From a virus (Duplodnaviria > Heunggongvirae > Uroviricota > Caudoviricetes), in IMG/VR virus record IMGVR_UViG_2850802633_000006: a stretch of DNA of 55,188 nucleotides; one strand, 5' to 3'. Position numbers: made by a program. Numbering within the stretch: the stretch's first letter is position 1; each line of letters starts with the position of its first letter. Below, one piece after another: positions 37,101 to 40,100 of the stretch.

Positions 37101-40100
37101 CGATGATCAGCAAATCCATTGACGCATAACGCTCAATAACTTCATCCGCTGTTTTTTCGCTGTCATTCCGCCAGCAATTTTTCACAGCACGGGTAAGGCG
37201 CATCACGTCGGTGATCTCCACACTGGCCAGATAGTTACGGATGATGTGTTTTGCCATAGCCACAGCCAGATGATTTTTTCCGGTACCACAACTGCCGGTC
37301 ATAACAAGACTGGTACCGTTCTCCAGCATATCTGGCCAGTTCTCCGCATAGCGGCGACAGGCCGCAAGATTTCTGGCTGCGCCAGGATTAACCTCCAGAT
37401 AATTATCAAACTCGCAGTCCCGAAAACGCAGGGCAATTCCGGCGTTATCAGTCAGCTCTTCCGCCTTGATGGACGACAGCTCCATGGTCAAATCGTTGGC
37501 CTCAGCGATTAAGCAGTCAGGGCAGCATGAAATTTCTTCTCTGTCCTCGCCATTACGATCGCTCCACACCAGTATATGCGTGTGATATTCGCCATGTTTT
37601 TCGCAATATCCGCGACCTTCACGCATCAGGCAGGAACGATAAGGCCATGGCTTTTCGCCCTTCTGAGCAAATGCAATCTCTGCCCGTAACTCATCCATTC
37701 GCGCCTGTAGTCTTTTTTGTTGTTCACGCAGGTTAAACGTCATCATCGCTGTCACCTCAGAATGTCAGTTTGTCACTGGATTTACCGAATTTGTCAGACA
37801 TGGCTCCCAGGCCAGCCAGGACATCGACCTGTCGCTGTCGCCCACCTCTGGGAGCGGCTGGCTGTTGCCAGAAGTCTTCGAAGTGACGATCGGGTCCAAA
37901 GAACGTCGCAGCCTGCTTCACGAACTGTGTGCCGGTATTTCCTGTGGCACGTACCCAGGCAGCATAGCGTTTCACGCCATCAAGCATGGCTTCAGGTTTT
38001 ATTCCCTCCCTGAGCCGGGCTTTCCAGGCTTTGAAGGCTGCGGATTTTGAGTTACCACCAGCACGTTTTGGATATTCCTGCCAGGCCTGTTCAAATTCCG
38101 GTGAATATTCCTGTCGGGAAGAACGCGCTGGTGCAGACGCGTCAGCGGATGCGCCAATAGTGTTTTTACTCTCTGTAGTATTCTCTGAAGTAATCTCTGT
38201 TGTATTCTCTGTAAGATCGAAATTGGTTTTCCCTTCTCCGCGGCGAGGGGTTTCCCGTGTCCGCGGTGAAGGCTTTCCCTCCTCCGCGAAATTGGGTTTT
38301 ACAGTTTCCCGAAAACGGGTTTCCCCATTTCGGGAAAACTGATTGTTTTCATTGATAATTTCATTAAGGCGCTCACAATCTATACGGTAGAACATTTTGT
38401 GCTCAAGACGCTTGTTGGTTTCAACCAAAATGCCTCTGGACACAAGATGCTTACGCGCTACAGCCTGTTGTTCAAATGTAAGTCCGGTTTCGTGTTGTAT
38501 CTCTTCACGCGTTTTATGTACGCCTTCCGCTGCATGTGCTTTATCCTGCCAGTAAAAAATCTGACCAAAGAAAATAACAGCGTGCGGACGGTAATGCTGC
38601 CAACTTACTGATTTAGTGTATGATGGTGATTTTAAGGTGCTTGCGTGGCTTCCATTTCCATCAGATGTCCTTCCTGCTCCGCTACTGAAGGCGTGGTGCG
38701 TAACGGCAAAAGCACTGCCGGACATCAGCGCTATCTCTGCTCTCATTGCCGTAAAACATGGCAACTACAGTTCACTTACACCGCCTCTCAGCCCGGTACG
38801 CACCAGAAAATCATTGATATGGCCATGAATGGCGTCGGATGTCGCGCCAGCGCACGCATTATGGGCGTTGGCCTCAACACGGTTTTACGTCACTTAAAAA
38901 ACTCAGGCCGCAGTCGGTAACCTCGCGCATACAACCGGGCAGTGATGTGATTGTCTGCGCTGAAATGGACGAACATTGGGGCTACGTCGGTGCTAAATCA
39001 CGTCAGCGCTGGCTGTTTTACGCGTATGACAGGATACGGAGGACGGTTGTGGCGCACGTCTTCGGTGAACGCACTCTGGCCACACTGGAGCGTCTTCTGA
39101 GCCTGCTGTCGGCCTTTGAGGTCGTGGTATGGATGACGGATGGCTGGCCGCTGTATGAATCACGCCTGAAGGGAAAGCTGCACGTTATCAGCAAGCGTTA
39201 CACTCAGCGCATTGAGCGACATAATCTGAATCTGAGACAACATCTGGCAAGGCTGGGACGGAAGTCACTGTCGTTCTCAAAATCGGTGGAGCTGCATGAC
39301 AAGGTCATCGGGCATTATCTGAACATAAAACACTATCAGTAAGTTGGAGTCATTACCCCTTTGTTGAGATTGCAAACATCTAATGCGGCAATGGCTGACA
39401 ATCGCTCCATTCTCAACGCGCACAGCATAGAGGCCATTTTCACTAAAAATTTCACGCAATTCTTCGATTTTCATCTTCAGAATCCTTCCAGATAAATAGC
39501 TCTCCCCTGTTCGGGGTCCATCCCTCTTCTCCCTGCGCGCTACTTAAGTGAGTCGATTCTATCTGCGAAGGTGCGCGAATCAAATTCACCGGAAATAAAC
39601 AACAAAAAACCCGCCGAAACGCTGAGAGATCACAGCGATGGGCGGGTTAAGTGCGGGTGCGTTGAGGATGCCTGACACATCAGAGGTGGGCGGGGATGGG
39701 ATCAGCTCCCCACCCGGTCACTCTTACTTCCTGGATTCGTAGTCTACGAAGACAGCGACCTCCGTCTGGCCGGTTCGGATTCGTACCTCACAGAGGTCTT
39801 TCCTCGTTACCAGTGCCGTCACTATGACGGTTAAACAGATGACGATCAGGGCGATTAACATCGCCTTTTGCTGCTTCATAGCCTGCTTCTCCTTGCCTTT
39901 CGGCATGTAAGAGGCTAACCTACATGTGCAAAGCATGAAATTGGCCTCAGATTAATGTTAAGCGTCTTGCCGGACGCGTAATGTTAACTGGGGCTTTTCT
40001 CTATCTGCCTTTTGGTGTTCATGCCTGAAGCAGATAGCCTCAAGCACCCGCAGTCATTCTACTTACCTCGCCAATATGAAATCAATCAGAAAGGTGCCCC

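Follow-up and report, generated by a model that had tools for sequence, protein, structure and literature searches.

A very probable complete hok/mok/sok type I toxin-antitoxin locus in the nin region of a lambdoid prophage

The toxin gene and its overlapping frame

IMG/VR virus record IMGVR_UViG_2850802633_000006 (Duplodnaviria; Heunggongvirae; Uroviricota; Caudoviricetes) consists of 55,188 nucleotides of DNA, and this whole stretch, referred to below as the window, was analyzed around a small toxin gene that lies on the minus strand near an IS1 element. The gene very probably belongs to a hok/mok/sok type I toxin-antitoxin module that is complete in structure and falls within the hokW/hokD lineage. 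All of the sequence elements of such a module are present, intact and placed as in characterized loci (Table 1), and both of the alternative sets of pairings of the hok leader can form in the window sequence, with pairings that are conserved across relatives. The whole locus occupies approximately 39604-40085 of the minus strand; an earlier note on this DNA had placed it at 39724-39950, an interval that holds only the open reading frame (ORF) and the mok Shine-Dalgarno (SD) sequence. It sits between queH and a rem-like gene, in the nin region of a lambdoid prophage, as is usual. Loci of this kind are already known and abundant, and many E. coli and Shigella lambdoid prophages carry hok/sok.

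The 51 amino acid Hok peptide, MKQQKAMLIALIVICLTVIVTALVTRKDLCEVRIRTGQTEVAVFVDYESRK, matched the Pfam family HOK_GEF (PF01848) with 79.9 bits (E value 9.8e-23; cut-off 22 bits), and the HokD-like toxin ORF described in the earlier note is therefore a real gene of the minus strand. The peptide is identical at all 51 positions to WP_014532198.1 of E. coli FDAARGOS_943, which the Prokaryotic Genome Annotation Pipeline (PGAP) names "type I toxin-antitoxin system toxin HokD", and to this extent the description "near-exact HokD-like" is apt. Only 46 of the 51 residues are shared with K-12 HokD, however, all five differences falling within the last seven residues, and the closest characterized relative is instead HokW of the Shiga toxin (Stx) phages 933W and Sp5, which matches at 50 of 51 positions. 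The NCBIfam Hok models scored under their curated cut-offs (55 vs 73 bits and 38.9 vs 89 bits), and these scores neither support nor contradict the name HokD. At the protein level that name applies to the window toxin, while the architecture of the K-12 locus does not. Comparison with HokW and HokD shows that the hok frame is intact and carries no frameshift.

As the note had proposed, hok has an in-frame upstream extension resembling mok. It adds 57 nt (19 codons), is preceded by its own GAGG SD 8 nt before the ATG, and overlaps all of hok. The window Mok is identical to MokW at 68 of 70 positions, and the two have equal length and layout. Searching IMG/VR with the Hok peptide gave 80 loci, of which 68 had both tac-like and fbi-like motifs and 45 were distinct over the messenger RNA (mRNA); these 45 relatives and the window were aligned with MAFFT to give an alignment of 46 loci (A3). 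The arrangement of the two frames (window 39879-39936) was compared among the A3 relatives with Hok at least 88% identical (loci L004-L083). Mok is in frame with hok as a 70 amino acid fusion, as in the window, in 35 of these loci, whereas five have mok in the +1 frame with a 68 amino acid product overlapping nearly all of hok, three end mok after 19 codons at an AUGA stop-start overlap, and one has ACG in place of the mok ATG. This variety of frames fits the view that translation of mok matters, not the Mok peptide. A rather improbable speculation is that the in-frame mok might also yield a 70 amino acid Mok-Hok isoform with a distinct activity or localization, and that the intact module might be the reason why a prophage remnant scrambled by insertion sequences (IS) persists in a Shigella-like genome that sheds DNA elsewhere.

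Codon 47 of hok (39739-39741, minus strand) encodes the conserved Tyr47 as TAC followed by G. The TACG at this codon was invariant in 46 of 46 aligned loci, while the neighboring codons vary; a second TACG lies out of frame across codons 32-33. TACG is the motif for A-to-I editing by TadA, through which the corresponding Tyr46 of hokC, hokD and hokE becomes Cys (PMC5630033). By analogy, editing of the Tyr47 codon would supply a second cysteine as a partner for Cys30.

Table 1. Position and strand of the features of the hok/mok/sok locus and of its immediate neighbors in the window
Feature	Position	Strand	Remarks
hok gene	39724-39879	minus	51 codons and stop; internal ATG at 39879; SD GGAG at 39892-39889
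mok ORF	39724-39936	minus	70 codons; ATG at 39936; stop 39726-39724 shared with hok, in frame
mok SD GAGG	39945-39948	minus	8 nt upstream of the mok AUG; invariant in 46 loci; pairs with ucb or dcb
hok/mok promoter	40056-40085	minus	-35 TTGATT (40085-40080), 18-nt spacer, -10 TAGAAT (40061-40056)
Full-length hok mRNA, predicted	39604-40049	minus	446 nt
tac element	40038-40049	minus	GGGUGCUUGAGG; pairs with fbi in the full-length fold and with ucb in the Rfam consensus of the processed leader; nearly invariant in 46 loci
5' leader hairpin	40001-40037	minus	CUAUCUGCUU / AGGCAGAUAG; 97.6% of cells paired; two compensatory pairs
ucb (anti-SD box)	39988-39994	minus	GCCCCAG; pairs with the mok SD (closed) or tac (open); helix 5 of the full-length fold
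dcb box	39911-39915	minus	GCCUC; in the open form, partner of GAGGC in the mok SD region
3' untranslated region stem-loop	39688-39715	minus	GGGUGGGGA ... UCCCCGCCC; G-C-rich; found by folding
fbi element	39655-39667	minus	CCUCAA-C-GCACCC; 12 bp with tac, one bulged C
Intrinsic terminator	39604-39648	minus	AACCCGCC ... GGCGGGUU; inner stem CGCUG/CAGCG, then U6
sok promoter	39893-39921	plus	-35 TTGCCT (39893-39898), 17-nt spacer, -10 TAACCT (39916-39921); inside mok
Sok antisense RNA gene, predicted	~39928-39998	plus	placed by projecting the sokW annotation of 933W onto the window with alignment A1
queH (epoxyqueuosine reductase)	40107-40793	minus	Pfam QueH, 220 bits; directly upstream of hok
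rem-like gene, 5' part	39358-39474	minus	truncated by IS1; ORF 39277-39474 runs into IS1
IS1 (insA/insB)	38590-39357	plus	Pfam InsA and DDE_Tnp_IS1; terminal repeats read at 38590 and 39357

The hok mRNA and its alternative pairings

The hok promoter, of the sigma-70 type and with nine of 12 consensus matches in a generic promoter scan, sits in the 57-bp gap after the queH stop (40107), and its -10 together with the sequence downstream of it is conserved with 933W. The 5' end of the mRNA was placed at 40049, 7 nt past the -10, where the Rfam model discussed below also begins, and the 3' end at the U-run of the terminator. The predicted full-length mRNA folded with a minimum free energy (MFE) of -187.7 kcal/mol and a z score of -8.3 against 100 shuffles. 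A generic terminator scan, which is limited to loops of 8 nt, reported no terminator; the hok terminator has a loop region of 25 nt and was found by folding instead. Its loop carries an insert of 23 nt relative to K-12 hokD, CCAUCGCUGUGAUCUCUCAGCGU (39620-39640, minus strand), which has a small inner stem of its own and is common to FDAARGOS_943; the K-12 terminator has the same stem with a 4-nt loop.

Members of this family share a set of regulatory elements, namely closure of the mRNA by tac and fbi, masking of the mok SD by ucb, a rearrangement to tac/ucb and SD/dcb pairing after 3' trimming, and a 5' metastable hairpin (PMC9841398). The MFE structure of the window mRNA has the closed form, in which nt 1-12 (tac) pair with nt 383-395 (fbi), and GCC.CAG of ucb (nt 56-62) pairs with a CUG.GGC that contains the mok SD. 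When the mRNA was folded without fbi, nt 1-13 paired with nt 19-29, which is a predicted 5' metastable hairpin as in plasmid R1 (PMC9841398). Threading the Rfam consensus on the window gave the open leader, consisting of a tac/ucb stem (G1-3 and G5-U8 with A54-C60) and a GAGGC/GCCUC hairpin between the SD and dcb.

The conservation of these pairings was assessed on alignment A3. The closed structure of the window was paired in 93.6% of 6168 cells, compared with 33-41% when the 3' partners were slid by 1-3 columns, although the first figure is inflated against these controls because the structure came from a member of the alignment itself. Both-sided, compensatory changes were present in nine pairs of the closed structure. 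The two in the 5' leader hairpin are an A-U in 27 loci that is G-C in 16, and a C-G in 40 loci that is U-A in four. The tac/fbi helix was paired in 99.8% of cells across the 46 loci and varies on one side only, from G-C to G-U. The tac/ucb (7 bp) and SD/dcb (5 bp) pairings were present in 46 of 46 loci, their columns being invariant.

The inner part of the SD/dcb hairpin behaves differently from its base. It occurs as 18 distinct sequences, each of which forms the same hairpin at -11.8 to -14.6 kcal/mol in per-sequence folding, which was used here because the Rfam consensus projects poorly on A3 for this variable stem owing to the placement of indels by MAFFT. The variable part extends over the first codons of mok and over the Sok 5' tail, and such variation is the expected signature of a structured antisense target that diverges to keep each Sok specific to its locus. 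Indel placement also makes the pairing counts on A3 unreliable for the stem-loop in the 3' untranslated region (helix 15), where the sequences of the relatives differ yet still form G-C-rich stems. By analogy with R1 (PMC9841398), this stem-loop would be expected to protect the 3' end of the processed mRNA.

The Sok antisense RNA

Alignment to a known hok/sok locus, a check suggested in the earlier note, was made with 933W, which has the same fold-back elements tac and fbi. For the antisense RNA expected on the opposite strand, a candidate promoter was read from the plus-strand sequence, TTGCCT and TAACCT separated by 17 nt, with both hexamers identical to those of sokW in 933W/Sp5 and one difference in the spacer; judged by its sequence, it is predicted to be a weak sigma-70 promoter. 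Mutation of the sokW -10 abolishes antitoxin activity, and the primer used, YO-421, replaces AGGTTA on the hok strand (Takada et al., PMC8621323). The predicted Sok of 71-73 nt folded at -30.2 kcal/mol (z score -4.7) into a single-stranded 5' tail of 9 nt, GCAAAGCAU, and a long terminator-like hairpin followed by CUUUUCU. It is complementary to nt 52-122 of the hok mRNA, which comprise ucb, the mok SD and the mok AUG, and the 5' tail complements the SD/dcb hairpin in its loop, the same arrangement that has been described for R1.

The Rfam family RF01794 ("sok") matched the window at 40049-39874 over the full length of the model (positions 1-157) with 117 bits and an E value of 4.8e-26, compared with a gathering score of 59 bits and with 113.5 bits for the positive control, 933W. 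Chance is ruled out for the locus by this E value and that of the Pfam match. The RF01794 match lies on the hok-sense strand both in the window (39874-40049, minus) and in 933W (L001 1521-1695, plus), where sokW is annotated on the opposite strand. Since the model matches the hok strand, it describes the hok leader, that is, the tac stem, the hairpin targeted by Sok, the mok start and the hok AUG, and not the antisense RNA. A strand call made from RF01794 alone would place Sok on the wrong strand.

In two of the phage relatives (L049 551-927 and L064 554-926) the region of the long Sok hairpin, equivalent to window 39952-39987, is replaced by an unrelated shorter sequence. Both retain tac, ucb, SD and dcb, and they may carry a different Sok body.

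IS1 and the prophage context

The hok stop codon is separated from IS1 by 366 bp, and the hok terminator ends 246 bp short of it. The 9-mers that flank IS1 differ (cgtgcggac vs cctttgttg), so that a target-site duplication is absent, and the sequences on its two sides match different prophages of E. coli. From these two observations IS1 marks a recombination or deletion joint. The placement of the toxin locus "next to the IS1 joint" in the earlier note is thus accurate as to the joint, while IS1 lies beyond the terminator and leaves the locus untouched. IS1 inactivation of hok was considered by analogy with the IS elements that are said to adjoin K-12 hokA, hokC and hokE, and was rejected, as neither fbi nor the terminator is damaged and 246 bp separate the latter from IS1. 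The rem-like gene cut by IS1 is intact in FDAARGOS_943, where it encodes 95 amino acids, and K-12 has rem at the same position after hokD. To the left of IS1 is a replication-protein gene without its 5' end, the ORF of which (37757-38764) runs into IS1.

The copy in the window differs from those of FDAARGOS_943 and FDAARGOS_944 by one base in 551, and the change keeps a G-U pair. The 3' stem variant specific to the window is also found in Shigella flexneri SFBU1023 and E. coli ECMA0423, where the sequence downstream of hok continues without IS1, and this points to a Shigella-like background. An exact-match scan of genome contigs for the junction between IS1 and the rem-like fragment gave no match. 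The pairing of queH with hok is annotated in many E. coli genomes.

The surrounding genes are those of a lambdoid prophage. Their order on the minus strand is a Rha-type regulator, a helix-turn-helix (HTH) repressor, cro/YdaT, replication genes, DUF977, queH, hok, the rem-like fragment and IS1, with the HTH repressor gene itself at 44116-44523 on the plus strand. The toxin locus is thus placed downstream of the cI/cro/replication genes. Beyond IS1 are the 5'-truncated replication gene, an IstB-like ATPase, a DnaB-type helicase, a Q antiterminator, four tRNA genes (34051-34358), lysozyme, terminase, capsid and tail genes. Matches to isrK (61.5 bits) and the C4 antisense RNA (75.7 bits) are adjacent at 47155-47343 (plus strand), beside the gene for the Rha-type regulator, and this region is a P1/P7-style antirepressor control region of the kind known from some lambdoid prophages. 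Several IS elements are present, among them a second IS1 transposase gene (48000-48503, minus strand), and an ALIL pseudoknot, the frameshift signal of the IS3 family, was found at 26287-26403 (plus strand, 113 bits); such a load of IS elements is consistent with a Shigella-like genome.

Proposed mechanism and alternative explanations

By analogy with characterized loci, we propose the following scheme. A constitutive promoter would produce a stable hok mRNA of 446 nt that is locked by tac/fbi pairing, with ucb masking the ribosome-binding site of mok. Slow trimming from the 3' end would remove the terminator and fbi, upon which tac would pair with ucb and the mok SD would move into the SD/dcb hairpin, leaving a trimmed mRNA that is both translatable and accessible to Sok. 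Sok would be an unstable antisense RNA of about 70 nt, made from the promoter inside mok, whose free 5' tail meets the loop of the SD/dcb hairpin; it would then pair with ucb, the mok SD and the mok AUG, stopping translation of mok and the coupled translation of hok, and RNase III would cut the duplex. If Sok synthesis were halted by loss of the element, by host shut-off by an infecting phage or by prophage induction, the processed mRNA would be translated and the 51 amino acid Hok peptide would depolarize the inner membrane.

What such a module might do for its carrier can be judged from its relatives. After mitomycin C treatment sokW RNA disappears and HokW builds up in the inner membrane in a RecA-dependent manner (PMC8621323), and release of Sp5 is approximately twofold higher with hokW-sokW than without it, which is the only role demonstrated for the nearest relative (PMC8621323). 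The hok/sok locus of R1 on a high-copy plasmid excludes T4, according to work cited in PMC8621323. Stabilization of the prophage remnant and abortive infection, both raised in the earlier note, are plausible by analogy, and are not findings. A search with the curated defense models of PADLOC gave no match for Hok or for the neighboring QueH.

Several points weigh against the reading of the locus as a working hok/mok/sok switch. The MFE structure of the truncated mRNA (ViennaRNA) keeps the SD paired with ucb and tac within the 5' metastable hairpin and contains no tac/ucb pairing, and the Rfam-type open leader lies 28 kcal/mol above the MFE of the leader; the case for the predicted open form comes from conservation and homology, and folding energies do not favor it. 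Covariation adds no independent evidence for tac, fbi, ucb, SD and dcb, the columns of which hardly vary. The sok -10, TAACCT, matches the consensus poorly, and the sok promoter was not reported by the generic promoter scan. For the window copy of hok, we infer transcription and expression, 3' processing, the instability of Sok, the toxicity of the exact 51 amino acid peptide and a role in the prophage. Finally, the intact chromosomal loci hokA, hokB and hokC gave no post-segregational killing and no activation by rifampicin, according to the summary of that work in a preprint (bioRxiv 10.1101/2025.08.07.668861).

The last of these observations is also in keeping with an explanation in which the locus is intact but physiologically silent, being transcribed and never activated in the manner of chromosomal hok loci in wild and laboratory E. 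coli, and is carried as a passenger in a decaying prophage to which it lends neither stabilization nor defense. The prophage is indeed full of IS elements (two IS1 copies and IS3-family elements, one with the ALIL signal), and IS1 joins the locus to a 5'-truncated replication gene, so that selection for phage functions would be relaxed. No element of the hok locus is damaged, however, and the copy is nearly identical to those of FDAARGOS_943/944, the single difference preserving a G-U pair. In addition, the closest characterized relative, hokW-sokW, is active from its native prophage position (PMC8621323), and a single chromosomal copy of R1 hok is lethal without Sok (PMC9841398). On balance we consider a silent passenger unlikely, though in so disrupted a prophage it has to be taken seriously.

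Two other explanations fare worse. A relBE-linked or truncated hokD of the K-12 type, a toxin without antisense control of its own that is expressed only by read-through, would agree with the name HokD that PGAP gives to the identical protein and with the coding region and 3' untranslated region (including fbi and the terminator stem), which are approximately 95% identical in an alignment of the window with the Qin prophage of MG1655. That similarity stops 16 nt before the hok ATG, beyond which K-12 has the end of relE and an Rfam search of the K-12 hokD region gave no RF01794 match, whereas in the window hok follows queH and has a full leader of 170 nt, complete with promoter, tac, ucb, mok and sok; this explanation is very improbable and we regard it as refuted. 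An open frame that arose by chance, or a pseudogene that has degraded next to an IS1 scar, would account for the shortness of the ORF and its position near the junction of an IS1-mediated rearrangement, but with Pfam and Rfam E values on the order of 1e-22 and 5e-26, an intact frame, an identical protein in other genomes and phage contigs, and IS1 ending 246 bp beyond the terminator, its probability is practically nil and it too is refuted. A complete hok/mok/sok module thus remains the preferred reading, and none of the three grounds for refutation named in the earlier note (no overlapping mok frame, no antisense promoter, a frameshifted hok) applies. The locus should be annotated as such, with the Sok RNA and the regulatory elements, and not just as a "HokD" coding sequence. 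Anyone engineering or curing the prophage would face a practical hazard in an intact type I toxin whose antitoxin would be labile, as a deletion of the sok promoter that left hok in place could be lethal.

Comparison with known systems

Megablast found homologous DNA in 4713 of 5426 complete E. coli genomes, at a median of two places per positive genome, and in 79 phage records that include 933W (with hokW/mokW/sokW annotated), VT2-Sakai, Stx1 and Stx2 phages, and mEp460. A recent survey reports enrichment of hok in prophages (bioRxiv 10.1101/2025.08.07.668861).

The nearest characterized system is hokW/mokW/sokW of the Stx2 phages 933W and Sp5 (VT2-Sakai), which has been shown experimentally to form a toxin-antitoxin pair of type I in which HokW is toxic and is neutralized by sokW (PMC8621323). 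From the hok -10 to just past fbi its DNA is 91.8% identical to that of the window. Both loci lie in lambdoid prophages, and they share the same tac, ucb, SD, dcb and fbi as well as an in-frame mok of 70 codons. They differ at Hok residue 50 (Arg in the window, Glu in HokW), in the -35 region and the upstream neighbor (queH in the window, L0139 in 933W), and after fbi, where the window has a K-12-like terminator with the 23-nt loop insert and 933W continues into L0136. Differences are also seen in the first mok codons and in the loop targeted by Sok (CUUUGCA in the window vs CUGAACA in 933W), and therefore the 5' tails of the two Sok RNAs differ and cross-regulation between them is uncertain.

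The hok mRNA of plasmid R1, the prototype, is roughly 400 nt, compared with the 446 nt predicted for the window, and R1 mok lies in another frame than hok, whereas that of the window is in frame. In architecture and named elements R1 hok/sok (parB) and the window agree, with tac/fbi closure of a stable mRNA, the ucb/SD/dcb switch, the metastable hairpin, the coupling to mok and a Sok promoter inside mok (PMC9841398). Toxins of the HokW type are only approximately 44% identical to R1 Hok (PMC8621323). The carrier also differs, being a plasmid for R1 and a prophage for the window, and strict post-segregational killing does not apply in the same way.

The chromosomal hokC/mokC/sokC locus of E. 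coli (gef) resembles the window in its in-frame mok, which gives a "leader + toxin" product, and the annotation of 933W calls mokW "similar to Gef+leader protein". Its locus and context are different. Pedersen and Gerdes are said to have reported in 1999 that K-12 hokC is inactivated by a downstream IS element, whereas IS1 in the window lies beyond the terminator. The hokC gene shares with the window both family membership and the Tyr-TACG editing motif (PMC5630033).

The comparison with K-12 hokD (relF, in the Qin prophage) bears on the history of the locus. Codons 1-44 are identical to those of the window apart from one synonymous change, and the two have the same hok SD, fbi and terminator stem and a rem-type gene downstream. 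K-12 hokD is however fused behind relBE and has no hok promoter, tac, ucb, mok start or sok. A second kind of leaderless hokD context was seen in two IMG/VR viral contigs (L008 and L009), in which the similarity to K-12 hokD starts only 14 nt upstream of the ATG, with no tac motif and no relE upstream. Where K-12 keeps no more than a truncated copy, the window has the locus in full, and it shows what K-12 hokD looked like before its fusion to relBE.

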